IMG/VR virus record: IMGVR_UViG_3300005470_000001
Strand: one strand, 5' to 3'
Source of the DNA: an uncultured virus (IMG/VR IMGVR_UViG_3300005470_000001)
Lineage: Duplodnaviria > Heunggongvirae > Uroviricota > Caudoviricetes
Length of the DNA stretch: 33,080 bases
Positions within the stretch are counted from its first letter, which is position 1. Every line of letters starts with the position of its first letter. Shown here piece by piece: positions 1 to 11,953 of the stretch. Position numbers and translations under genes: made by a program. Under the pieces are notes generated by a model. It had not been told where the DNA came from and ran no database searches. It was given only the letters and a program-made list of their open reading frames with translations.

Positions 1-152
1 TCCTCAAAGGCATCAACGACCTCAGCCTCAAGCTCTGCAATGCGATTCTGAACCTCAAACGCGTCAATGTATGGCAACGCTGGAGCCCCTTGCTCCGAGT
101 CATACACATCCGCTGTGCCATTATTATACTGTACTACCCATATCGTTTTCAT
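1..152 (-). CDS. 5' part of a hypothetical protein (copy of 8147-8506), truncated by the window edge
   Basis: Identical to 8355-8506; AGGAGG RBS precedes the ATG at 152. Confidence 0.7.
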   Translation of the reverse strand, partial: MKTIWVVQYNNGTADVYDSEQGAPALPYIDAFEVQNRIAELEAEVVDAFE

Positions 153-814
153 TTCTCCTCCTTGTTGAATTTAAAATCTCGCACAGGACGAGCCTTGTAG
201 CTGTTGATCTTGTAGTTGAAGTACTGGTGGCCAGTGTAGAAATACTGGTTCCACGCGAAGTCAGCATTGTATTCCGACGAACTCCAGTAGACATAGGCTC
301 CAAAACCGCCAATAGCTACGCGATTTTTGTACATCTGATTCAGTTCATCCTTGGTCGGCAACCTCCAGCCTTCGCCAAGCGCTTCGACCACCTTAACTGC
401 CTCATCCCATGTGTAAATTCCACCAAGGTCTTGTGGATAGACCTCGAACTCAAGTTCTTGATACAGTGTTGTCGTCATTTCTCCTCCTTGTTCCTCCTTG
501 TTTGGTTTTAAATCTCGCACAGGACGAACCCTGTTATAGATGCTTTTGTAGGCGTTGCCATGGCCGCCAGTGTAGAAACACTTGAGCCACGCAATCTCCT
601 CGTCGTACTCCGACGAACTCCAGTAGTAGTAGGCTCCAAAACCGCCAATTTCTTCTTGCTCCAAATACATCAGCTCCAGCTCTTTTTTTGTTGGTAGTCG
701 CCATCCGTCGCCAAGTGCTTCGACAACCTTAACTGCTTCATCCCATATGTAAAATCCTTCGAGATCTTGTGGGTAAACCTCGAACCCAAGTTCTTGATGT
801 AGTGCTGTCGTCAT
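149..814 (-). CDS. Tandem two-domain DUF1566/C-type-lectin-fold protein, probable DGR target
   Basis: Two copies of W.EA...GWRLPT..EL...YWSSSE...AW...R.RPVR. Start moved from 862 to ATG 814, which follows AACAAGGAGGAGAA. Confidence 0.85.
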   Translation of the reverse strand: MTTALHQELGFEVYPQDLEGFYIWDEAVKVVEALGDGWRLPTKKELELMYLEQEEIGGFGAYYYWSSSEYDEEIAWLKCFYTGGHGNAYKSIYNRVRPVRDLKPNKEEQGGEMTTTLYQELEFEVYPQDLGGIYTWDEAVKVVEALGEGWRLPTKDELNQMYKNRVAIGGFGAYVYWSSSEYNADFAWNQYFYTGHQYFNYKINSYKARPVRDFKFNKEEK

Positions 815-830
815 TTCTCCTCCTTGTTTA

Positions 831-1061
831 TTACGAAAGGTTAAATGCTTCAATCTCTGCACTTGTTAGTTTTTCTAACGCAGACTCACGAAGTTTTATA
901 CGTTTAATCTCTTTTTTTATATAAGGAGATATATTTGTTTTCGTGTTATATTGCTTTCCATAAGCATCAACACCCCAACCACATTCATCGCAGTGCCAAT
1001 CATTGTGTCCTTCCATTATGTAAGACCCACAATTCTTACAAACAATTACATCGTGTCCCAT
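831..1061 (-). CDS. Small Zn-ribbon protein
   Basis: CKNC...CDEC motif; gene packing. Confidence 0.7.
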   Translation of the reverse strand: MGHDVIVCKNCGSYIMEGHNDWHCDECGWGVDAYGKQYNTKTNISPYIKKEIKRIKLRESALEKLTSAEIEAFNLS

Positions 1062-1062
1062 C

Positions 1063-1326
1063 TTAAACCTCCTCCCAATTTAGTTTAGCCCCACACTGAG
1101 GGCAAAAAGTCCATTCTTCGGATAGTCCCCTATATTCGCATTCCGAACAGTCCCAGTCTTTACGCCCTGATCCGTTATACACCGGTCTTATATATATTTT
1201 TTGCGGGTATTCTTCTGCGCGTTTCCTCCAGTAGCACACATCGCATAGGTCAAGGTCAACGCCCTTCTGTCTGCCATGTAGGCGTGGGTTGATGGCGTAT
1301 GATCCGCAATTTTTGCAGTTTATCAT
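1063..1326 (-). CDS. Double Zn-finger phage protein
   Basis: CKNC/CDVC and CSEC/CPQC motifs. Confidence 0.75.
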   Translation of the reverse strand: MINCKNCGSYAINPRLHGRQKGVDLDLCDVCYWRKRAEEYPQKIYIRPVYNGSGRKDWDCSECEYRGLSEEWTFCPQCGAKLNWEEV

Positions 1327-1631
1327 TTTTCCTTTTTGTTTAGCATTGCGTTTATAATTTGGGTAACTGGTGACTCAGTTGTCGCATATACTGCTATGTC
1401 TTCAAGCGCGCCTTCAAGCTCGGCTATGCGCTGAACTGCCTGTGTATACTTAGCACTCAGCTCAAAGTATCGGGTATGTGCAGTCTTGCTTGCTTCAGTA
1501 TGCAGCTCAGCAGTCCTCATACTCCTGTCCAGTTGCTCCTCAAGCTCAGTGATGCGCTCTCTCAAGATGTCTTCAACTCCTCTACTCTGTTGCATCTCTT
1601 CGATTTGTGACTCATTCATGTTTATCTTCAT
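1323..1631 (-). CDS. Hypothetical coiled-coil protein
   Basis: RITELE/RIAELE heptads; ATGA overlap with the next gene. Confidence 0.7.
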   Translation of the reverse strand: MKINMNESQIEEMQQSRGVEDILRERITELEEQLDRSMRTAELHTEASKTAHTRYFELSAKYTQAVQRIAELEGALEDIAVYATTESPVTQIINAMLNKKEK

Positions 1632-1756
1632 CTATATAACAATTATGAAATTCTCTATCCCAAATTTCTTCTTTCCAATACTTAACACTATTAAAAACAA
1701 TATCAACAAGCATTTTTATTTTGCTAATAAATTCTGTCATTTTTATTTTCATAATT

Positions 1757-2275
1757 TTATCTAATAATTAATGATTTTTTTGGTGTAATTTTAATACAAT
1801 CAGGGATTGTTTCAAGAACACCATCTTTAAAATCTTTTTTGATTATAGAAATATGTGGTTTAAATTCTTTAGTTGCATAACCACTTGATAAAAGTGAATT
1901 TTTATTTTCTTCAGTAATATCTTCTTTTAATTCCCAAGATTCAGTATTACGAATATTATAATTTCCTAAATCAGTTTTTAATTTACTTTCTCCACTTAAT
2001 TCCATTAATTGCAACATTTTATTACGTGCAAATTCAATTCGTGATTCACAGCTTAATTTGCGTGCTTTTAAACGATTTTCTTCTTCTTCATACATATTGT
2101 ATTGTGAACGATTATAATTAATCCATCCACGATAACGATCAAGTGAATCTTTTAAATCACCATTGAAATTATCTAAAAGAGCTTGAATTTCAGGAGTAAT
2201 TTCACCTTCACTTTCTATTAAAGAATTATCAATGATTTGATAAAGATTTAATAAATCTATAAATGAATTGTTCAT
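1757..2275 (-). CDS. Siphovirus Gp157-like protein
   Basis: LYQI...GEITPE N-terminus, E.RLKARK coiled coil, KLKTD.G C-terminal part, 172 aa. Confidence 0.75.
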   Translation of the reverse strand: MNNSFIDLLNLYQIIDNSLIESEGEITPEIQALLDNFNGDLKDSLDRYRGWINYNRSQYNMYEEEENRLKARKLSCESRIEFARNKMLQLMELSGESKLKTDLGNYNIRNTESWELKEDITEENKNSLLSSGYATKEFKPHISIIKKDFKDGVLETIPDCIKITPKKSLIIR

Positions 2276-2278
2276 ATT

Positions 2279-2686
2279 TTAAAAGTTAATTTTTTGTCCA
2301 TTAACAAAAACCTGTTCAGACATTTTTTTATCTACAACTGGTCCATTTAATGTTACATGTTTTGAATTACATCTAATCCTTGTATTATTTTTAGGATTTT
2401 TTATAATTAAATCTTGATTACATTCATATTTAGAGTTTTTGTAATGAGATTTAAAATGATTTGTTTGATTTATATTTTCTACTAAAAATATTCTTCTGAG
2501 AACTTCATTTCCACATTTTTTATTATCATGAAAATATGTAGAACTACTTGTATCTACAATAAAAACTTCATCATTAATGTTAATTATACAAGAATTGTTT
2601 GTTAACCAACTCAATGTATCTGTAATAATTTTCATTATTTTAGGATCTCTTATTGCAGCTTCATAAAAAGTATCATTTGTTGGCAT
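2279..2686 (-). CDS. Hypothetical protein
   Basis: 135-aa ORF in an operon-like arrangement. Confidence 0.65.
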   Translation of the reverse strand: MPTNDTFYEAAIRDPKIMKIITDTLSWLTNNSCIININDEVFIVDTSSSTYFHDNKKCGNEVLRRIFLVENINQTNHFKSHYKNSKYECNQDLIIKNPKNNTRIRCNSKHVTLNGPVVDKKMSEQVFVNGQKINF

Positions 2687-2719
2687 TATTATATTATTTT
2701 ATTAATAAAATTAATTGTG

Positions 2720-2792
2720 CTGGCAAGACAGGATTCGAACCTGTAACCGAGCGGTTAACAGCCGCTAGCTCTACCAATTGAGCTACTCGCCA
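2720..2792 (-). tRNA. trnN: tRNA-Asn(GTT)
   Basis: Acceptor TGGCGAG/CTTGCCA, anticodon arm AGCGG-CTGTTAA-CCGCT, T loop TTCGAAT. Confidence 0.95.
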
Positions 2793-2798
2793 GTTTAT

Positions 2799-2933
2799 TT
2801 ATTTATATGATTTACCACATACAGTACAAGTACAACCTTCGCTTTTTAATTTACTATTCATCCAACGTTTAAATTTACCAAGAAGTTTGTCTTGAAAAGC
2901 ATGTTCACATGTACATGTTCTAATTACCATCAT
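2799..2933 (-). CDS. 44-aa Cys-rich protein (MMVIRTCTCEH...CTCTVCGKSYK)
   Basis: Hand translation; below the ORF-track cutoff; CxC..H and CxxC motifs. Confidence 0.55.
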   Translation of the reverse strand: MMVIRTCTCEHAFQDKLLGKFKRWMNSKLKSEGCTCTVCGKSYK

Positions 2934-2949
2934 GATTATTTAATTTATT

Positions 2950-3081
2950 TTAGTTATGATAATCTTCACCTGCATACAAGTTGTCAAAATCAACTATTTC
3001 CACATGAACATCATTAGGGCATTCTACTACTTCAGCAACCCCTCCTGCAACATGGATAACAACAATTTTTTCTTCTTTCAT
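2950..3081 (-). CDS. 43-aa protein (MKEEKIVVIHVAGGVAEVVECPNDVHVEIVDFDN...)
   Basis: Hand translation; the second copy differs by conservative N-terminal substitutions and keeps the frame. Confidence 0.65.
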   Translation of the reverse strand: MKEEKIVVIHVAGGVAEVVECPNDVHVEIVDFDNLYAGEDYHN

Positions 3082-3123
3082 TATTAATTATTTTAGTTAT
3101 GATTTATACAAATTTATAATGAA

Positions 3124-3453
3124 TTATTTTTCATATTTCTTTCTGAGTCTCTCATACTCTTTCTTTTCTGATTCTTCTCTTTTGACTTTCAATTGAGCTT
3201 TCTTTTCCTTTGCCTTTACTTCGTTCTTCAATCGTCTTTCATATTCTTTATCAGTCTCAAAACGGTATGAAATCAAATAAAATTTAAAGTCATCATTATC
3301 CCATGTTACTACTCTAAATTTATGAAGTTCACCCGTAATTTTATTTGATAGGTTGACCAATTCATCTATTGCTTCTTCAATGGTTTTTTCATCAAAGATA
3401 TCGTCAAGATAGACGTGAATTCTTTTATCTTCAACTAATTGTTTCTGTTCCAT
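3124..3453 (-). CDS. Hypothetical protein with C-terminal coiled coil
   Basis: Start moved to MEQKQLVE (3453) to avoid overlap with the upstream gene; RFETDKEYERRL...ERLRKKYE tail. Confidence 0.7.
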   Translation of the reverse strand: MEQKQLVEDKRIHVYLDDIFDEKTIEEAIDELVNLSNKITGELHKFRVVTWDNDDFKFYLISYRFETDKEYERRLKNEVKAKEKKAQLKVKREESEKKEYERLRKKYEK

Positions 3454-3457
3454 ATTA

Positions 3458-3940
3458 TTAATTAATTTTAATTGAACCATCATCATTCCATTCATAACCT
3501 GAAATGTCGTACTTCTCTTCAAGAATGTTTTTAGAATAGCCACAAATGCTCATAGTATTCAAATTGATGAAGTTAGCTATCAATTCTCCGCTATCAACAT
3601 CAACAGCACCCAAAACTAAATTCCCGAAGACACTCGTCCTAACTTCAAACTTCCATTTCTTCAGTGGTGGTTCAACTTCTTTTAGATAAGTACAAACCTT
3701 ACCATCTGTTACTTCAGTAACAAGCTCTACTTCTTGATTTGTATAAGCACCAAAACTGCCTTTATGAACGCCGTAGATATACTTCTTACCATCTTCTTTC
3801 TCATAGGCGGTTATAATATCAATATTAGAAGGAAAATATCTATTTCTACCAACTTTCCTTTCATACCCAAGCGAGAACAGATGGTCTTGAACCTTTCGTG
3901 AATGGTCTTCGCTGTGGATTTTAATCTTAATATCTTTCAT
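3458..3940 (-). CDS. Hypothetical protein, paralogue of 11438-11923
   Basis: Shared KVQDHLFSLGYE and C-terminal YDISGYEWNDDGSIKIN. Confidence 0.8.
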   Translation of the reverse strand: MKDIKIKIHSEDHSRKVQDHLFSLGYERKVGRNRYFPSNIDIITAYEKEDGKKYIYGVHKGSFGAYTNQEVELVTEVTDGKVCTYLKEVEPPLKKWKFEVRTSVFGNLVLGAVDVDSGELIANFINLNTMSICGYSKNILEEKYDISGYEWNDDGSIKIN

Positions 3941-4038
3941 TTTCTTTTAATTTAGTTTACGATACATTCAAAATTTATAATAACATTTTGTAGGGCTGGG
4001 GGGACTCGAACCCCCACGGATTTCTCCAGTGGATTTTA

Positions 4039-4828
4039 CTTACCACTATAGCAGTTAGCTACCAGACTTTCTTGTCTATTTACAATCTATTCGTCTGTTT
4101 GTGGTCTGGACTATATCTTTACCATATCATTTCTGATTTAGGTATGCAGTACATAGTCTCTGAACCTTCCTCATGCAAAAATATAAACGACATTTTTGTT
4201 TAGAGGCTCGGATGCTGATTGACCAATATCAGTTATTTTTATAACATTTGAGTTCGTCATTTCTAACCACTCTTTAGTTAACTGATCTCTAAGGCTATCC
4301 CAGCAATTCTCTGCATTACTACTATACAGTTTCCTATATAGCGACCATTGTTGTTGAAGAAAACGATGTAAAGCATTGTGTTTGTTTACTGACATTATCA
4401 TAAAGTTAGATAATATATTGTGTTCAGGATTTTCATCAATATGATGAATAAAGATATCTTTTGATAACAAGAATCCTAAATCAATAATTGCTTGTCTACC
4501 TAAAGTATTACCTTTAGTACTCCTACTTACTTTATTATAATTTTCAGTATTCTTTTTTCTACATTTTAAATGAGTTAATTGGTTTGGTCTATTCATAATC
4601 ATTGATTCACCACATAATGAACAAACTCCTATACCATAACGTTTTTTAGTATTCTTGTTATAGTATTTTTTAACTCGTTCTCTATTATAGATTTTAGCAC
4701 ACTCTTTACATCTTTTTCTTTCAACTACTTCTTCTTTGCCACAATCAATACACATTTTCATATTTAGATAAGTTTAAGTTAAAAACTAAATATACAAAAA
4801 TGGTAGACAATAACAAAAGAAAAGTTTT
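4039..4828 (-). mobile_element. Group I self-splicing intron (790 nt) with HNH ORF
   Basis: 5' exon ends in U and intron ends in G. P AATTGCTGGGA (4308-4298), Q AATCAGCA (4220-4213), R TCAGAGACTA (4163-4154), S AAGATATAGTCC (4119-4108). P3 ATGCAG/CTGCAT; P2 hairpin with GAAA loop. Confidence 0.92.
4171..4761 (-). CDS. Intron-encoded HNH homing endonuclease
   Basis: HHIDENPEHNILSNF...HNALH HNH motif; N-terminal CxxC Zn motifs. Confidence 0.85.
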   Translation of the reverse strand: MKMCIDCGKEEVVERKRCKECAKIYNRERVKKYYNKNTKKRYGIGVCSLCGESMIMNRPNQLTHLKCRKKNTENYNKVSRSTKGNTLGRQAIIDLGFLLSKDIFIHHIDENPEHNILSNFMIMSVNKHNALHRFLQQQWSLYRKLYSSNAENCWDSLRDQLTKEWLEMTNSNVIKITDIGQSASEPLNKNVVYIFA

Positions 4829-4873
4829 AGTCCACAGCGTCTACCAGTTCCGCCACAACCCCATTAATATTTG

Positions 4874-5001
4874 TTCTTCAGGGTGGATTCGAACCACCAA
4901 GACTCAGTTTATCTCAACTGCCACATTGTCTAATTGTCTCATCTAAGTCTTTTATGTGGTAAATGAATAAGACAATGCTCTACCATTTGAGCTACTGAAG
5001 A
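4874..5001 (-). ncRNA. tRNA-like RNA with expanded, non-canonical anticodon region
   Basis: Perfect acceptor TCTTCAG/CTGAAGA, D arm GCTC-AAATGGTA-GAGC, T arm GGTGG-TTCGAAT-CCACC; about 50 extra nt in the middle. Confidence 0.75.
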
Positions 5002-5040
5002 ACCAAATTATATATAAGACCACCATATATATATAATAAG

Positions 5041-5114
5041 TAGGCCCTGTAGGATTTGAACCTACGACCCAGCGATTATGAGTCGCTTGCTCTAACCAAC
5101 TGAGCTAAGGGCCT
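5041..5114 (-). tRNA. tRNA with CAT anticodon, probably Ile2 (lysidine type)
   Basis: Acceptor AGGCCCT/AGGGCCT; arm AGCGA-CTCATAA-TCGCT resembles bacterial tRNA-Ile2. Confidence 0.9.
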
Positions 5115-5414
5115 TTATCTAAAGGTATCTCTACTCAAGAGAGATTTATTACAAACACCGCGTGTTAAACTTTAGTTACAAAATTTTGTTTCTAATCTAT
5201 ATTTAAAGTGAGAGTAACAATGACCATAATTAACATGTTTTTTTATTTTAAATACATTGTAAATATCTTTAAATAATACAGTAATGTTTTTCATTGTAAT
5301 ATACCTTGTTTATAGAATTAAAATTTTCAAAGAACAATTAAGTGGTATCCCTGGTCCCTGAGCCAGTGATGGTAATATTTCAACCCCAGTTGTTTTAACA
5401 CCAGATACCACAAG

Positions 5415-5488
5415 AGCTTCCTGAGGGACTCGAACCCCCAACATCCTCATTACAAGTGAGGTGCTCTACCAATTAAAGCTAAGGAAGC
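5415..5488 (-). tRNA. trnT: tRNA-Thr(TGT)
   Basis: Acceptor GCTTCCT/AGGAAGC; CCTCA-CTTGTAA-TGAGG. Confidence 0.93.
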
Positions 5489-5595
5489 AAAAATGTAGTA
5501 TATAAAATCATTTACATACTACATTAATAATAAATAATTTAAACTTATGGCGAATATTATTGAAGTATTATCAATTCCAGCTCGAAGTTTTAAAA

Positions 5596-5862
5596 TTATT
5601 TCACAACAAAATCTAAATCTTCAACTTTAAAACATTTAAAACGATTACTGTTTTTTTCAACATGGGTTTGTTCTTCGTCTTCAAAATGTGTATTTTTAAA
5701 ATCAAAAGGAGTAAAATTTAATGTATGATCTACAAAATACAAATCTAGAAAATAATTAGTATCATTTTCAACAAAATCTGTATTATCTCTTTTTATAGCA
5801 ATTACATATTTATCTTTCAATCTAACTAATGCTGTTGCATTATAAGTGGTTATATCTGACAT
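5596..5862 (-). CDS. Hypothetical protein
   Basis: 88-aa ORF immediately downstream of the phosphoesterase. Confidence 0.6.
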   Translation of the reverse strand: MSDITTYNATALVRLKDKYVIAIKRDNTDFVENDTNYFLDLYFVDHTLNFTPFDFKNTHFEDEEQTHVEKNSNRFKCFKVEDLDFVVK

Positions 5863-5869
5863 TTTATTT

Positions 5870-6379
5870 TTATTTTTTTAAATTATTAATAACAATATCT
5901 AATAAAACAGGTGTATAATTGATACATTCTACACTAACATTAAAATGATGTTTTCCCATATTTAATTCAGGATGAACTTCTGCTGTATTATGCATATGAC
6001 CATGTATATTATAAAAAGAAGTATTATTTAAATTTTGTATAGGTTCATGAGATAAAATAACATCATTTATTATAATAGGATATTTATAATACATGTAAAA
6101 TAAATCAATATAATATTGATCTTTTTCATTATCATGATTACCTTTTATTAATATAATTCTACCATTTAATGCATTTATAATTGAAGTAACATGCTCTTTA
6201 TTAATAGACATAGCTATATCACCTAAATGATATACAATATCATTTTTTTTGACAACAGAATTCCAATTATTAATTAATTCTTTTGTCATAATATCTACAT
6301 TTTCAAAAGGTCTATTACAATATTTAATTATATTATTATGTCCAAAATGTGTATCACTTATAATATATGTTTTATTCAT
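5870..6379 (-). CDS. Calcineurin-like metallophosphoesterase
   Basis: SDTHFGH, HLGD, GNHD, SH and HGHMH motifs. Confidence 0.92.
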   Translation of the reverse strand: MNKTYIISDTHFGHNNIIKYCNRPFENVDIMTKELINNWNSVVKKNDIVYHLGDIAMSINKEHVTSIINALNGRIILIKGNHDNEKDQYYIDLFYMYYKYPIIINDVILSHEPIQNLNNTSFYNIHGHMHNTAEVHPELNMGKHHFNVSVECINYTPVLLDIVINNLKK

Positions 6380-6406
6380 GTATAAAATTGTATTTTAAAT
6401 TTATAG

Positions 6407-6478
6407 CTGGGGAAGTAGGATTCGAACCTACGAGTGTCAGCTCCAAAGGCCGATGCCTTACCACTTGGCTATTCCCCA
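6407..6478 (-). tRNA. trnQ: tRNA-Gln(TTG)
   Basis: Acceptor TGGGGAA/TTCCCCA; TCGGC-CTTTGGA-GCTGA. Confidence 0.92.
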
Positions 6479-6491
6479 AGTTGTATATACT

Positions 6492-6668
6492 TTAATCCCC
6501 ATCTCCAGCTATTGAATCTAAATGACAAGTACAGTATTTTATAGTACTCATTTTATACTCAATATACTTCAAAATATCTTTTCTGAGTTCATCAATAGTT
6601 TCATTGTGACTTTGTTCACAAGGACAATTAAACCATTTTGCTTTATTAAAAATTTCTTCTAAATTCAT
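6492..6668 (-). CDS. 58-aa hypothetical protein (MNLEEIFNKAKWFNCPCE...)
   Basis: Hand translation; fills the gap before tRNA-Gln; GGAG upstream. Confidence 0.45.
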   Translation of the reverse strand: MNLEEIFNKAKWFNCPCEQSHNETIDELRKDILKYIEYKMSTIKYCTCHLDSIAGDGD

Positions 6669-7290
6669 TTTTTCTCCTTGTTTTTATAGGAACATATTTT
6701 CTTTGAAATACACCAAAACATACATTAAAAGAACCATCATCACATTTTTCAACATATGCTTTAGGTGAACGTTCATTTTTTATAGCATATTGAAATGCTT
6801 GATATTCAAGATCAACAATTCTTTTTTCCAAAGCCATGATAAGTAAATCTTTACCATTACTTGCATCCTTACAGCATTCAAGTTGTAGTTCTATATCTGC
6901 AATCCTATCATACAACTTTTTATTCGCCTCATAATCTTCAACTTCTTCACGCCATGTTGATGGTTTATCGGATACCACTTTGTCTATAGGCTCTTTGAGT
7001 GGTTTCAAGTTTCGCACAGGACGAACCCTGAAGTTGAAGTCCTTGTTGTAGCTGCTCTGGTTGCCATTGGAGAAGTACTGGTTCCACGCGTTGTCAGCAT
7101 CGTACTCCGACGAACTCCAGTAGTAGTAGGCTCCAAAACCACCAATATTTTCTTGCTCAAGGTACATCTGATTTAGCTCATCTTTTGTCGGCAACCGCCA
7201 ACCATCACCAAGTGCTTCGACAACTTTAATAGCTTTGTCCCACGAGTAAGAGCCATCGAGGTCTTTGTGGTAGATCTCAATATTTAACAT
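6646..7290 (-). CDS. DUF1566/CLec-fold domain fused to a coiled-coil extension, probable DGR target
   Basis: GWRLPTKDEL...YWSSSE...AWNQYF...RVRPVR; GAGGAGG RBS. Confidence 0.82.
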   Translation of the reverse strand: MLNIEIYHKDLDGSYSWDKAIKVVEALGDGWRLPTKDELNQMYLEQENIGGFGAYYYWSSSEYDADNAWNQYFSNGNQSSYNKDFNFRVRPVRNLKPLKEPIDKVVSDKPSTWREEVEDYEANKKLYDRIADIELQLECCKDASNGKDLLIMALEKRIVDLEYQAFQYAIKNERSPKAYVEKCDDGSFNVCFGVFQRKYVPIKTRRKNEFRRNF

Positions 7291-8146: not shown

Positions 8147-8506
8147 CTATTTCTCCCCCTTGTTTTCAACAGCCCTTTCAAATCTTTTGATCCAAGCTTC
8201 ACGGTCTTCTTCCCATTCATTCAGTGCTTCCAGCTTTCCCTCAAGCACCTCAATCTGTAGCTTCTGCATATCAACTCTTCCTTCTAACTTTATAACCTGC
8301 CCATCCTTTTCAAGCGCACCCTCTATGTGCCTTAATACTCCAAGATGATATCCATCCTCAAAGGCATCAACGACCTCAGCCTCAAGCTCTGCAATGCGAT
8401 TCTGAACCTCAAACGCGTCAATGTATGGCAACGCTGGAGCCCCTTGCTCCGAGTCATACACATCCGCTGTGCCATTATTATACTGTACTACCCATATCGT
8501 TTTCAT
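8147..8506 (-). CDS. Hypothetical coiled-coil protein
   Basis: AGGAGG RBS; RIAELE motif. Confidence 0.7.
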   Translation of the reverse strand: MKTIWVVQYNNGTADVYDSEQGAPALPYIDAFEVQNRIAELEAEVVDAFEDGYHLGVLRHIEGALEKDGQVIKLEGRVDMQKLQIEVLEGKLEALNEWEEDREAWIKRFERAVENKGEK

Positions 8507-9168
8507 TTCTCCTCCTTGTTGAATTTAAAATCTCGCACAGGACGAGCCTTGTAGCTGTTGATCTTGTAGTTGAAGTACTGGTGGCCAGTGTAGAAATACT
8601 GGTTCCACGCGAAGTCAGCATTGTATTCCGACGAACTCCAGTAGACATAGGCTCCAAAACCGCCAATAGCTACGCGATTTTTGTACATCTGATTCAGTTC
8701 ATCCTTGGTCGGCAACCTCCAGCCTTCGCCAAGCGCTTCGACCACCTTAACTGCCTCATCCCATGTGTAAATTCCACCAAGGTCTTGTGGATAGACCTCG
8801 AACTCAAGTTCTTGATACAGTGTTGTCGTCATTTCTCCTCCTTGTTCCTCCTTGTTTGGTTTTAAATCTCGCACAGGACGAACCCTGTTATAGATGCTTT
8901 TGTAGGCGTTGCCATGGCCGCCAGTGTAGAAACACTTGAGCCACGCAATCTCCTCGTCGTACTCCGACGAACTCCAGTAGTAGTAGGCTCCAAAACCGCC
9001 AATTTCTTCTTGCTCCAAATACATCAGCTCCAGCTCTTTTTTTGTTGGTAGTCGCCATCCGTCGCCAAGTGCTTCGACAACCTTAACTGCTTCATCCCAT
9101 ATGTAAAATCCTTCGAGATCTTGTGGGTAAACCTCGAACCCAAGTTCTTGATGTAGTGCTGTCGTCAT
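8503..9168 (-). CDS. Tandem two-domain DUF1566/CLec protein (duplicate of 149-814)
   Basis: Identical translation. Confidence 0.85.
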   Translation of the reverse strand: MTTALHQELGFEVYPQDLEGFYIWDEAVKVVEALGDGWRLPTKKELELMYLEQEEIGGFGAYYYWSSSEYDEEIAWLKCFYTGGHGNAYKSIYNRVRPVRDLKPNKEEQGGEMTTTLYQELEFEVYPQDLGGIYTWDEAVKVVEALGEGWRLPTKDELNQMYKNRVAIGGFGAYVYWSSSEYNADFAWNQYFYTGHQYFNYKINSYKARPVRDFKFNKEEK

Positions 9169-9184
9169 TTCTCCTCCTTGTTTA

Positions 9185-9415
9185 TTACGAAAGGTTAAAT
9201 GCTTCAATCTCTGCACTTGTTAGTTTTTCTAACGCAGACTCACGAAGTTTTATACGTTTAATCTCTTTTTTTATATAAGGAGATATATTTGTTTTCGTGT
9301 TATATTGCTTTCCATAAGCATCAACACCCCAACCACATTCATCGCAGTGCCAATCATTGTGTCCTTCCATTATGTAAGACCCACAATTCTTACAAACAAT
9401 TACATCGTGTCCCAT
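9185..9415 (-). CDS. Small Zn-ribbon protein (duplicate)
   Basis: Identical to 831-1061. Confidence 0.7.
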   Translation of the reverse strand: MGHDVIVCKNCGSYIMEGHNDWHCDECGWGVDAYGKQYNTKTNISPYIKKEIKRIKLRESALEKLTSAEIEAFNLS

Positions 9416-9416
9416 C

Positions 9417-9680
9417 TTAAACCTCCTCCCAATTTAGTTTAGCCCCACACTGAGGGCAAAAAGTCCATTCTTCGGATAGTCCCCTATATTCGCATTCCGA
9501 ACAGTCCCAGTCTTTACGCCCTGATCCGTTATACACCGGTCTTATATATATTTTTTGCGGGTATTCTTCTGCGCGTTTCCTCCAGTAGCACACATCGCAT
9601 AGGTCAAGGTCAACGCCCTTCTGTCTGCCATGTAGGCGTGGGTTGATGGCGTATGATCCGCAATTTTTGCAGTTTATCAT
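9417..9680 (-). CDS. Double Zn-finger protein (duplicate)
   Basis: Identical to 1063-1326. Confidence 0.75.
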   Translation of the reverse strand: MINCKNCGSYAINPRLHGRQKGVDLDLCDVCYWRKRAEEYPQKIYIRPVYNGSGRKDWDCSECEYRGLSEEWTFCPQCGAKLNWEEV

Positions 9681-9985
9681 TTTTCCTTTTTGTTTAGCAT
9701 TGCGTTTATAATTTGGGTAACTGGTGACTCAGTTGTCGCATATACTGCTATGTCTTCAAGCGCGCCTTCAAGCTCGGCTATGCGCTGAACTGCCTGTGTA
9801 TACTTAGCACTCAGCTCAAAGTATCGGGTATGTGCAGTCTTGCTTGCTTCAGTATGCAGCTCAGCAGTCCTCATACTCCTGTCCAGTTGCTCCTCAAGCT
9901 CAGTGATGCGCTCTCTCAAGATGTCTTCAACTCCTCTACTCTGTTGCATCTCTTCGATTTGTGACTCATTCATGTTTATCTTCAT
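9677..9985 (-). CDS. Coiled-coil hypothetical protein (duplicate)
   Basis: Identical to 1323-1631. Confidence 0.7.
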   Translation of the reverse strand: MKINMNESQIEEMQQSRGVEDILRERITELEEQLDRSMRTAELHTEASKTAHTRYFELSAKYTQAVQRIAELEGALEDIAVYATTESPVTQIINAMLNKKEK

Positions 9986-10110
9986 CTATATAACAATTAT
10001 GAAATTCTCTATCCCAAATTTCTTCTTTCCAATACTTAACACTATTAAAAACAATATCAACAAGCATTTTTATTTTGCTAATAAATTCTGTCATTTTTAT
10101 TTTCATAATT

Positions 10111-10629
10111 TTATCTAATAATTAATGATTTTTTTGGTGTAATTTTAATACAATCAGGGATTGTTTCAAGAACACCATCTTTAAAATCTTTTTTGATTAT
10201 AGAAATATGTGGTTTAAATTCTTTAGTTGCATAACCACTTGATAAAAGTGAATTTTTATTTTCTTCAGTAATATCTTCTTTTAATTCCCAAGATTCAGTA
10301 TTACGAATATTATAATTTCCTAAATCAGTTTTTAATTTACTTTCTCCACTTAATTCCATTAATTGCAACATTTTATTACGTGCAAATTCAATTCGTGATT
10401 CACAGCTTAATTTGCGTGCTTTTAAACGATTTTCTTCTTCTTCATACATATTGTATTGTGAACGATTATAATTAATCCATCCACGATAACGATCAAGTGA
10501 ATCTTTTAAATCACCATTGAAATTATCTAAAAGAGCTTGAATTTCAGGAGTAATTTCACCTTCACTTTCTATTAAAGAATTATCAATGATTTGATAAAGA
10601 TTTAATAAATCTATAAATGAATTGTTCAT
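10111..10629 (-). CDS. Siphovirus Gp157-like protein (duplicate)
   Basis: Identical to 1757-2275. Confidence 0.75.
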   Translation of the reverse strand: MNNSFIDLLNLYQIIDNSLIESEGEITPEIQALLDNFNGDLKDSLDRYRGWINYNRSQYNMYEEEENRLKARKLSCESRIEFARNKMLQLMELSGESKLKTDLGNYNIRNTESWELKEDITEENKNSLLSSGYATKEFKPHISIIKKDFKDGVLETIPDCIKITPKKSLIIR

Positions 10630-10632
10630 ATT

Positions 10633-11040
10633 TTAAAAGTTAATTTTTTGTCCATTAACAAAAACCTGTTCAGACATTTTTTTATCTACAACTGGTCCAT
10701 TTAATGTTACATGTTTTGAATTACATCTAATCCTTGTATTATTTTTAGGATTTTTTATAATTAAATCTTGATTACATTCATATTTAGAGTTTTTGTAATG
10801 AGATTTAAAATGATTTGTTTGATTTATATTTTCTACTAAAAATATTCTTCTGAGAACTTCATTTCCACATTTTTTATTATCATGAAAATATGTAGAACTA
10901 CTTGTATCTACAATAAAAACTTCATCATTAATGTTAATTATACAAGAATTGTTTGTTAACCAACTCAATGTATCTGTAATAATTTTCATTATTTTAGGAT
11001 CTCTTATTGCAGCTTCATAAAAAGTATCATTTGTTGGCAT
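10633..11040 (-). CDS. Hypothetical protein (duplicate)
   Basis: Identical to 2279-2686. Confidence 0.65.
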   Translation of the reverse strand: MPTNDTFYEAAIRDPKIMKIITDTLSWLTNNSCIININDEVFIVDTSSSTYFHDNKKCGNEVLRRIFLVENINQTNHFKSHYKNSKYECNQDLIIKNPKNNTRIRCNSKHVTLNGPVVDKKMSEQVFVNGQKINF

Positions 11041-11073
11041 TATTATATTATTTTATTAATAAAATTAATTGTG

Positions 11074-11146
11074 CTGGCAAGACAGGATTCGAACCTGTAA
11101 CCGAGCGGTTAACAGCCGCTAGCTCTACCAATTGAGCTACTCGCCA
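11074..11146 (-). tRNA. trnN: tRNA-Asn(GTT) (duplicate)
   Basis: Identical to 2720-2792. Confidence 0.95.
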
Positions 11147-11152
11147 GTTTAT

Positions 11153-11287
11153 TTATTTATATGATTTACCACATACAGTACAAGTACAACCTTCGCTTTT
11201 TAATTTACTATTCATCCAACGTTTAAATTTACCAAGAAGTTTGTCTTGAAAAGCATGTTCACATGTACATGTTCTAATTACCATCAT
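11153..11287 (-). CDS. 44-aa Cys-rich protein (duplicate)
   Basis: Identical to 2799-2933. Confidence 0.55.
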   Translation of the reverse strand: MMVIRTCTCEHAFQDKLLGKFKRWMNSKLKSEGCTCTVCGKSYK

Positions 11288-11303
11288 GATTATTTAATTT
11301 ATT

Positions 11304-11435
11304 TTAGTTATGATAATCTTCACCTGCATACAAGTTGTCAAAATCAACTATTTCCACATGAACATCATTAGGGCATTCTACTACTTCAGCAACCCCTCCT
11401 GTAACATGGATAACAACAACTCTTTCTTTTTCCAT
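11304..11435 (-). CDS. 43-aa protein (MEKERVVVIHVTGGVAEVVECPN...)
   Basis: Variant of 2950-3081 that spans the repeat boundary. Confidence 0.65.
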   Translation of the reverse strand: MEKERVVVIHVTGGVAEVVECPNDVHVEIVDFDNLYAGEDYHN

Positions 11436-11437
11436 TA

Positions 11438-11923
11438 TTAATTGATTTTAATTGAACCATCATCATTCCATTCATAACCTGAAATGTCGTACTTCTTTTC
11501 AAGTATATTTTTAGTATAGCCACAAATGGCCATGTTATCCAAATTAATTAAATTAGCTATCAATTCTCCACTTTTAACGTCAACAGCACCCAAAACTAAA
11601 TTCCCGAAAACAGTCTTCCTAACTTCAAACTTCCATTTCTTCAATGGTAGTTCAACTTCTTTTAGATAAGTACAAACTTTTCCATCTGTTACTTCAGTAA
11701 CAAGTTCTACCTCTTGATTTTCTATGTTATTGAAATCACTTACATTATAGAAATAGATATATATATATTTACCATCTATTTCTTCGTATGCGGTTATAAC
11801 ATCAAGTTTACCAATAAAATATGTTTTTCCAATTCCTCTCCATTCATATCCAAGCGAGAACAAATGGTCCTGTACCTTATGAGCATACTCTTCGTCTCTG
11901 ATTCTAATCTTAATGTTTTTCAT
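11438..11923 (-). CDS. Hypothetical protein, paralogue of 3458-3940
   Basis: Start moved to MKNIKIRIR (11923) because the longer ORF overlaps tRNA-Arg and the paralogue starts MKDIKIKI. Confidence 0.8.
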   Translation of the reverse strand: MKNIKIRIRDEEYAHKVQDHLFSLGYEWRGIGKTYFIGKLDVITAYEEIDGKYIYIYFYNVSDFNNIENQEVELVTEVTDGKVCTYLKEVELPLKKWKFEVRKTVFGNLVLGAVDVKSGELIANLINLDNMAICGYTKNILEKKYDISGYEWNDDGSIKIN

Positions 11924-11953
11924 TTTTTTGATATTATTGTAAAAATTTACATG

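Follow-up and report, generated by a model that had tools for sequence, protein, structure and literature searches.

A tRNA-shaped gene with a self-complementary surplus in a crAss-like phage genome: a possible interrupted tRNA-Asn

Introduction

Can a gene that keeps every outer part of a tRNA, and carries roughly 50 nt too many in its middle, still give rise to a tRNA? The question is raised by positions 4874–5001 of IMG/VR virus record IMGVR_UViG_3300005470_000001, a stretch of 33,080 nt called the window below. A sequence-only reading had described the locus as a tRNA-like RNA with a probable pseudoknot in place of the anticodon arm, and had offered two explanations: a tRNA mimic, or a tRNA with a mini-intron of unfamiliar type. 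Re-reading the sequence returns exactly these coordinates and places the gene on the minus strand; reverse-complementing 4874–5001 gives the 128-nt RNA. The element is an intact-looking tRNA-shaped gene with a self-complementary surplus. The interpretation that we prefer, and hold tentatively, is that of an interrupted AAN-box tRNA, Asn(GUU) by preference, carrying a short structured insert directly after U33.

Results

The outer arms of a tRNA are intact

The acceptor, D and T arms had been reported as perfectly paired, and they are: pairing is Watson-Crick throughout the acceptor stem (7/7), the D stem (4/4) and the T stem (5/5), giving 16 arm pairs. The bases that take part in tertiary interactions (U8, A14, G18G19 and A21) are also intact, as are A9 and the T loop UUCGAAU. 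What sets the element apart is the distance between the D and T arms, which is 78 nt versus 22–23 nt in a normal tRNA, a surplus of about 50–55 nt. The layout of the element is as follows, with the source of each assignment in brackets.

4874–5001, minus strand: whole tRNA-shaped gene, 128 nt, no CCA encoded (Rfam RF00005, 45.3 bits, and sequence).
4995–5001, minus strand: acceptor stem 5' strand UCUUCAG, RNA 1–7; partner at 4875–4881 (sequence).
4977–4992, minus strand: D arm, with a 4-bp stem and the 8-nt loop AAAUGGUA (sequence, Rfam alignment).
4971–4975, minus strand: UUGUC, anticodon stem 5' strand, RNA 27–31; U32 and U33 follow at 4970–4969 (Rfam alignment, excision enumeration).
4919–4968, minus strand: candidate 50-nt insert of the Asn parse, RNA 34–83 (single-excision enumeration).
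4934–4968, minus strand: candidate 35-nt insert of the Lys parse, RNA 34–68 (ARAGORN -i).
4954–4959, minus strand: CCACAU, RNA 43–48; partner AUGUGG at 4921–4926, RNA 76–81 (helix search).
4943–4951, minus strand: AAGACUUAG, RNA 51–59, in the insert; 9-bp complement CUGAGUCUU at 4899–4907, in the enlarged variable loop (helix search).
4934–4943, minus strand: GAUGAGACAA, RNA 59–68; partner RNA 27–36 (4966–4975), 10 bp, in the minimum-free-energy (MFE) fold (MFE fold).
4909–4918, minus strand: GUUGA (G34–A38 of the Asn parse), then GAUAA, anticodon stem 3' strand (MFE fold, excision enumeration).
4899–4908, minus strand: 10-nt variable loop ACUGAGUCUU of the Asn parse (excision enumeration).
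4882–4898, minus strand: T arm, GGUGG-UUCGAAU-CCACC (sequence, Rfam alignment).
4874–4881, minus strand: acceptor stem 3' strand CUGAAGA and discriminator A73 (sequence).

When the region is searched alone, it matches the Rfam tRNA family RF00005 over model positions 1–71 with 45.3 bits (E 1.6e-8; gathering score 29). The alignment requires two inserts, one of 38 nt in the anticodon loop and one of 25 nt in the variable region, and the contiguous 5-bp stem, 7-nt loop and normal variable region by which a tRNA is recognised are not present in the element. It also remains true, as stated earlier, that a group I core (Rfam, E up to 10), a 7-nt anticodon loop as one contiguous stretch and a known family are lacking, the last in the sense that Rfam 15 returns nothing besides tRNA at E up to 10. 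A pseudo or undetermined call had been expected from the standard tools. In fact, neither default ARAGORN nor a gathering-score Rfam run on the whole window calls the element at all, and the tRNA match emerges from the region alone. As a side observation, this 45-bit match is absent from the 33-kb Rfam run and found with a 500-nt query; insert-bearing tRNAs are missed in long queries because of the speed filters of the Rfam search.

Removal of 50 nt restores an anticodon arm on paper

A strict rule was applied in enumerating single excisions: the product must have nucleotide 26, 5/5 anticodon stem pairs, U33 and a purine at position 37. With a variable loop of 4–6 nt, no single excision solves the element. 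Widening the limit to 13 nt gives a sole solution, in which the 50 nt after U33 (RNA 34–83) are taken out. The product is a 78-nt cloverleaf with A26, the anticodon arm UUGUC / UUGUUGA / GAUAA and a 10-nt variable loop; its anticodon is GUU, and a one-base shift of the cut would make it AUU. Hence the description of the anticodon arm as replaced was an overstatement, since removal of RNA 34–83 restores both the UUGUC/GAUAA stem and a 7-nt loop with GUU. Among 5000 shuffled cores, 10.9% have some excision solution and 0.28% have a GUU solution; when the 5' strand is held fixed, these values are 26.9% and 0.78%.

A second line of evidence comes from the acceptor stem. A pattern scan of one genome per prokaryotic species gave at least 166 matches in at least 120 loci, and among the matches listed 141 are Asn(GUU) and 25 are tRNA-Thr. 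The listed Asn matches have a 7-bp acceptor stem identical to that of the element, except for one variant (2 matches) that starts with G; the 25 tRNA-Thr matches start with G at position 1. Nearly all of the records listed are titled Bacteroidota, and most of these Bacteroidales. The GUU excision and the Asn-type acceptor stem thus appear as two independent lines that point towards Asn. Within the AAN box, Asn(GUU) is the most likely identity and Lys(UUU) a less likely one.

On the choice between mimic and mini-intron, the statistics are weak; they slightly favour the mini-intron, because removal of RNA 34–83 restores the anticodon stem and loop, and they speak neither for the mimic nor decisively against it. 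Two further approaches to identity were set aside. Isotype matches of the 5' half are undiagnostic, being spread over Val, Arg, Met, Ile, Asn and Trp. Two-excision models are uninformative: they give 110 solutions with nine anticodon loops, and 28% of shuffles have at least one solution.

The core is unusually self-complementary, and of ordinary stability

The helices described in the sequence-only reading are all present. The UUGUCUUAUU/GAUGAGACAA stem has 10 bp, including 2 G-U pairs, and closes a 22-nt loop; the alternative helix AAGACUUAG/CUGAGUCUU has 9 bp, including 1 G-U; and the CAGUU/AACUG hairpin is seen both in the fold and in the helix search. The six Watson-Crick pairs of CCACAU/AUGUGG exist too. 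They had been read as a pseudoknot, and in the Asn parse they are instead the insert's own stem.

The whole RNA has an MFE of −34.5 kcal/mol (z −2.88), a low value that is due to the tRNA arms. For the central 77 nt we used dinucleotide shuffles with the tRNA arms held fixed as the null (n=1000), and against these the core is ordinary: −33.4 versus −32.2 ± 2.6 kcal/mol (z −0.47), with 31% of the 1000 shuffles equally stable. The complementarity within the core is another matter. Of 1000 shuffles, 0.3% have two unpaired MFE loops that match over 6 Watson-Crick bp; of 3000 shuffles, 8.5% have a helix of at least 10 bp and 3.0% have two helices of at least 9 bp. The self-complementarity of the core is unusual; its stability is not. 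Because the three long helices cross each other, they cannot all form simultaneously.

In the MFE fold, the 10-bp helix (RNA 27–36 with 59–68) hides the anticodon stem 5' strand and buries U32–U33, and G34–U36 lie in the CAGUU/AACUG hairpin; that is, the GUU of the precursor sits within a hairpin formed by 4916–4920 with 4905–4909. If the mature anticodon stem is enforced, the RNA folds into a rod (−29.3 kcal/mol) that runs from the anticodon stem through an irregular extension and the CCACAU/AUGUGG insert stem to a 27-nt loop cap. The splice junctions of this constrained fold lie inside helices. In the Asn parse, 9/10 bases of the variable loop are complementary to the insert. This pairing crosses the insert's own stem, so that both together would make an H-type pseudoknot.

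The same numbers bear on the mimic explanation, in which the 128-nt RNA is the final product: the tRNA top half would serve RNase P and CCA processing as well as stability. In place of the anticodon and variable region there would be a lower domain, compact and perhaps pseudoknotted, that binds a host factor or draws it away; candidates for such a factor are a synthetase, a modification enzyme or a defence nuclease that targets tRNA. Such a decoy would account for the low chance levels of the loop-loop pairing and of the two long helices, would need ordinary end processing and no splicing enzyme of a new kind, and has a phage precedent in the T4 rnaC RNA, which has a T arm and acceptor-like ends and no tRNA score. 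It also fits the fact that no excision yields a fully canonical tRNA, every parse carrying at least two anomalies. On the other hand, the nested core folds no better than its shuffles, the long helices exclude each other, there is no related Rfam family, the antisense matches in the window are not significant, and a restorable Asn anticodon arm combined with an Asn-type acceptor stem would have to be a coincidence (0.3–0.8%). We regard a non-decoding mimic as possible and rather doubtful. An antisense target was among the candidates rejected: matches of 12–13 nt occur in the window, all in coding sequence, and the motif count of 5 (1.95 expected) is equalled by 6/100 shuffles.

The copies found are identical and belong to a narrow lineage

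Identical copies of the element were found in three IMG/VR contigs, in two metagenome records and in contigs of three runs from three studies. They fall into two lineages. The first is 99.8% identical to the window over 3989–7229. The second differs at 7/534 bases around the element (4847, 5005, 5023, 5055, 5094, 5117 and 5215) and has a different tRNA-Leu intron downstream, with 0 changes in the 128 nt of the element. The closest complete relative, whose major capsid protein is 94% identical, is without the whole tRNA region.

No diverged homologue was obtained by any of several routes. A pattern of the T arm and acceptor returned three contigs only, with the element identical in each, and a pattern running from the D arm to the T loop gave no homologue other than identical copies, in IMG/VR (among the matches listed) and in metagenomes. 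A pattern anchored in the insert had a T loop nearby in 1/118 loci among the matches listed, namely the element itself. Patterns anchored in the acceptor stem, in long and canonical-length forms, gave neither a diverged homologue nor an uninterrupted sibling. Nor did a diverged homologue appear in blastn against 50,697 phage records, in a neighbour-gene search via the phosphoesterase gene (see below) or in a tRNA scan of capsid relatives. When the insert was compared with every fetched locus, no similarity was seen beyond the matches imposed by pattern design.

This narrow distribution is what recent damage would leave behind: a tRNA, perhaps captured from a host, with junk in its anticodon loop and in functionless decay. 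The searches made place the element in one narrow phage lineage, the closest complete relative has no such region, and G37, A73 and the odd variable loop resemble drift; the core is no more stable than its shuffles, and the lack of changes is not statistically significant. Against decay stand the intact 16/16 arm pairs and tertiary bases, the unusual self-complementarity, the position of the gene within a tight array (spacers of 11 nt and 38 nt), and the fact that the element is identical everywhere it was found, although the two lineages differ in the spacers, in tRNA-Met and in the neighbouring intron. Decay therefore seems to us quite unlikely.

A separate observation concerns a phage gene of normal length in IMGVR_UViG_3300021431_000918 (L500), which is tRNA-shaped, shares the element's acceptor stem and resembles it in the D arm, and has the anticodon loop GAUGAAG without U33 and discriminator C.

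Evidence against tRNA-Asn, and the Lys parse

A number of results weigh against an interrupted tRNA-Asn, and against its being spliced. Firstly, there are those that concern the enumeration itself. The variable-loop limit was widened post hoc, after the Asn lead had appeared, and among 24 other long tRNAs without a strict solution (see below) the wider limit rescues 1, which is background. Secondly, the product would be an odd tRNA-Asn: it would carry G37 and A73, and its 10-nt variable loop would be unstructured, whereas the Bacteroidota and phage tRNA-Asn genes that we compared have A37, G73 and five bases before the T stem, read as a 5-nt variable loop. In A73, in the T loop UUCGAAU and in its D-loop length of 8 nt, the element fits Bacteroidota tRNA-Lys better. 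The exact acceptor stem is found in 3/301 sampled genomes of the phylum, and it is therefore no phylum-wide Asn mark. Thirdly, the phage already has two canonical tRNA-Asn genes (ARAGORN). Fourthly, the absence of changes in the element has P about 0.15, which is not significant, and so selection on the element is not shown. Finally, a script scan between RNA 26 and 104 found no strict bulge-helix-bulge motif, defined as a 4-bp helix between two 3-nt bulges on opposite strands with helices on either side; the RtcB and RNA_ligase families gave no match in a 49-kb sister contig (52% complete); and Pfam gave no RNA ligase among the 27/86 listed window open reading frames (ORFs) that were submitted. 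RtcB is present in a Bacteroides control genome.

To this list belongs the output of ARAGORN -i, which parses the element as tRNA-Lys(UUU) with a 35-nt intron, a 26-nt extra arm and no nucleotide 26, and whose score for this Lys parse is at least that of the Asn parse. The two parses have the 5' junction after U33 in common and differ at the 3' junction, which lies before RNA 84 (Asn) or before RNA 69 (Lys). Under the Lys alternative, then, RNA 34–68 would be the insert and the extra arm would be permanent. In its favour are the loop CUUUUAG, with C32, U33 and A37; the discriminator A73; a T loop and a D-loop length like those of Bacteroidota tRNA-Lys; the lack of any other tRNA-Lys in the window; and the virtual product, which ARAGORN still calls at the 120% threshold, the virtual Asn product being an ordinary tRNA up to 115%. 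The difficulties are that A26 is consumed in the stem, leaving nucleotide 26 missing, that a C32–G38 pair could shrink the loop to 5 nt, and that the acceptor stem agrees at 5/7 positions with Bacteroidota Lys and at 7/7 with Asn. In addition, we know of no tRNA-Lys with a 26-nt extra arm. The intron call itself carries no weight, because ARAGORN -i reports an intron-containing tRNA in 277/400 (69%) of shuffled cores, with Lys itself in 7/400. Overall, tRNA-Lys(UUU) is a very unlikely identity for the element. The isotype call of ARAGORN -i was rejected, given that it changes between Lys and Ile(AAU) depending on settings.

How an interrupted tRNA-Asn might be matured

If the element is an interrupted tRNA-Asn, the following sequence of events can be proposed. 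The array would be transcribed as a single precursor, from which RNase P and 3' processing would release the 128-nt RNA, with CCA supplied by a host enzyme. The insert-bearing RNA would be unable to decode, with U32–U33 held in the 10-bp helix and G34–U36 in the hairpin. In the rod, the CCACAU/AUGUGG insert stem would draw both junctions to the same rod end, and the variable loop could pair with the insert through 9/10 of its bases. A putative endonuclease would cut both junctions, and an RNA ligase would join the halves; the many other short inserts in phage tRNA genes would need the same cut-and-join route.

That the 50-nt insert is a genuine intron of this sort, removed by a tRNA-splicing route undescribed in bacteria or phages, we judge to be unlikely. 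In its full form the proposal is that the cuts flank 33/34, that an RNA-repair ligase rejoins the ends, and that the variable loop acts as an exon-borne 9-bp guide, which together with the 6-bp insert stem would form a pseudoknot that positions or masks the splice sites. If true, the phage would be hiding a tRNA from anticodon-loop nucleases until it is needed; PrrC-type anticodon nucleases cut at position 33/34. To our knowledge, tRNA splicing in bacteria proceeds only through self-splicing group I or II introns, and we know of no tRNA splicing endonuclease in bacteria or their phages.

Short inserts occur in other phage tRNA genes

An IMG/VR pattern consisting of the element's D arm, 60–90 nt and a T loop matched at least 119 loci (L004–L122). 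With the element's own copies set aside, the matches listed include 55 long tRNAs whose acceptor and T stems are intact. Of these, 31 become canonical after one excision under the strict form of the rule, compared with 25/1140 shuffles. The inserts of those 31, which belong to many isotypes, are mostly 42–58 nt long and lie in the anticodon stem 5' strand, after positions 28–31, with some after U33. Each forms a hairpin, which varies in sequence, and behind it, close to the 3' end, comes a conserved motif, ACAGCAA or GUUACUU. For the 20 of these loci that were submitted, Rfam returned nothing but tRNA. The phage tRNA inserts look like an undescribed mobile insert class.

The element is like these other IMG/VR inserts in its intact tRNA frame, in an insert of 40–58 nt with its own hairpin or rod, in a position (after U33) that some of them occupy, and in its placement in an array. 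It differs in three respects: most of the others lie in the stem 5' strand and carry the ACAGCAA or GUUACUU motif, and the element has neither motif; and most of the others leave a fully canonical tRNA, whereas the strict rule gives no solution for the element.

Two kinds of odd gene were seen in related crAss-like phages along the way. Those with a capsid about 58% identical have a tRNA-shaped gene of 167 nt (L252, G007:C1:6081-6247; L250, G018) with a core of roughly 95 nt that contains ACAGCAA, and single excision from this gene gives no tRNA. Leu-like genes of 100–101 nt with odd anticodon regions occur in G007 and G014.

Short inserts without a ribozyme signature are thus frequent in phage tRNA genes, and most give a perfect tRNA once removed on paper; their frequency counts in favour of an interrupted tRNA in the case of the element. 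If they are excised, there would be an undescribed tRNA-splicing pathway in phage-infected bacteria; if they are not, there would be a large class of phage tRNA-shaped RNAs with added modules. The element is the awkward case: there are two candidates for its 3' junction, a loop of its exon is complementary to the insert, and its identity marks are partly those of Asn and partly those of Lys. These features make it a useful test case, though the cleaner insert families are a better starting point.

Comparison with known systems

In our literature search, short non-group-I introns in phage tRNAs came up only as a remark of Devoto et al. (2019; PMC6784885) on 'enigmatic' introns in the tRNA genes of Lak megaphages. 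As described there, the Lak introns are like the element in occurring in over-long phage tRNA genes, as short inserts without an Rfam family; in both cases the same insert is identical wherever it recurs, and the excision route is unexplained. Lak phages, which are megaphages, infect gut Prevotella; the element's phage is a freshwater crAss-like phage of the ~96-kb class. Unlike the Lak introns as described, the element has an enlarged exon variable loop that is complementary to the insert.

Group I introns of tRNA genes, such as that of the neighbouring tRNA-Leu(UAA), likewise sit in the anticodon loop behind a 5' exon that ends in U. The element's insert is 50 nt long rather than 200 nt or more, and its last base is A rather than G. 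The Intron_gpI model has no match at E up to 10 in 4700–5200, and the same tool finds the neighbouring intron (positive control). Archaeal and eukaryal bulge-helix-bulge introns are alike in being short, protein-dependent and paired with the anticodon region; the element differs from them in having no strict bulge-helix-bulge and in its position, 33/34 rather than 37/38.

Two other groups of RNAs have a tRNA-like part. Transfer-messenger RNA (tmRNA) and YrlA-type Y RNAs combine a tRNA top half with a non-anticodon domain, which in tmRNA contains pseudoknots. Unlike tmRNA, the element has no G3–U70 (its positions 3–70 are U–A), has a complete D arm and has a core of only 77 nt. ARAGORN found no tmRNA, and the Rfam tmRNA matches lie elsewhere and cover a T arm only. 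A mini-tmRNA with a GCA-started frame of 5 codons was rejected on the same ground, the lack of G3–U70. The YrlA model scores 16 bits (gathering score 69), mostly outside the element, and the chain topology of YrlA is opposite to that of the element. The RNAs of T4 rnaC and rnaD (species 1 and 2 RNAs; AF158101) are, like the element, stable tRNA-flanked RNAs of 119–139 nt in a phage array. Neither has sequence similarity to the element, and the best match of rnaC is tRNA-Sec with 17.5 bits, versus 45.3 bits for the element with tRNA. In its own right, rnaC (rnaC/rnaD locus L162 1909-2172) has a perfect T arm and an acceptor-like stem at its end, an old observation that is still unexplained.

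The small self-cleaving ribozyme families of Rfam 15, which include hepatitis delta virus (HDV)-like, hammerhead, twister, pistol and hatchet ribozymes, gave no match at E up to 10. By eye, an HDV-like fold was rejected for want of P3, and a hammerhead for want of the CUGAUGA...GAAA core. The main text of the theta-ribozyme paper (PMC10879173) makes no mention of introns or inserts within tRNAs.

The phage and its tRNA array

The window is phage DNA of 31.7% G+C that encodes terminase, portal and major head proteins (PHROGs). Its major capsid protein shares 53.5% identity with the one of Flavobacterium phage FpV4 and also matches Bacteroides and Cellulophaga crAss-like phages. The source is, on these protein matches, likely a crAss-like phage; a Bacteroidota host is likely because the closest cultured relatives are Flavobacterium phages. 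Sequencing runs in which parts of the region occur carry the labels freshwater, aquatic, viral and groundwater metagenome. ARAGORN finds tRNAs for Asn, Thr, Gln, Arg(UCU), Leu(UAA) and Met in the window. The element is flanked by the last two of these:

5040–5114, minus strand: upstream neighbour tRNA-Met(CAU), 38-nt spacer (ARAGORN, Rfam).
3990–4862, minus strand: downstream neighbour tRNA-Leu(UAA), 11 nt away, split by a 790-nt group I intron with ORF 4171–4761 (ARAGORN -i, Rfam).

None of the Met, element and Leu genes encodes CCA. No terminator-like site was seen within the tRNA array, and the promoter and terminator scan is uninformative in DNA this AT-rich.

The Intron_gpI match of the tRNA-Leu intron (29.7 bits, E 1.9e-5) is below the gathering score of 50. 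The second lineage and three sequencing runs depart from the window exactly at the tRNA-Leu exon-intron border (4825–4829), which shows that this intron is polymorphic. It is inserted after position 34/35, and its ORF (4171–4761) encodes 196 aa, is Cys-rich at the N-terminus and matches neither Pfam nor PHROG entries.

Two further features of the window were recorded. Within the tRNA region, 5870–6379 (minus strand) is a gene for a calcineurin-like metallophosphoesterase (Pfam PF00149, PHROG 547), a fold to which RNA 3'-end-healing phosphoesterases belong; neither a kinase nor a ligase was seen as its partner. Further, a direct repeat of 3.1 kb (1–3095 and 8355–11450; 99.8% identity) duplicates several ORFs together with tRNA-Asn(GUU), and beyond it a further 0.5 kb is 82% identical (3432–3947 versus 11414–11929). 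The first repeat copy begins at base 1 of the window, and so the repeat may originate from assembly or from a terminal repeat.

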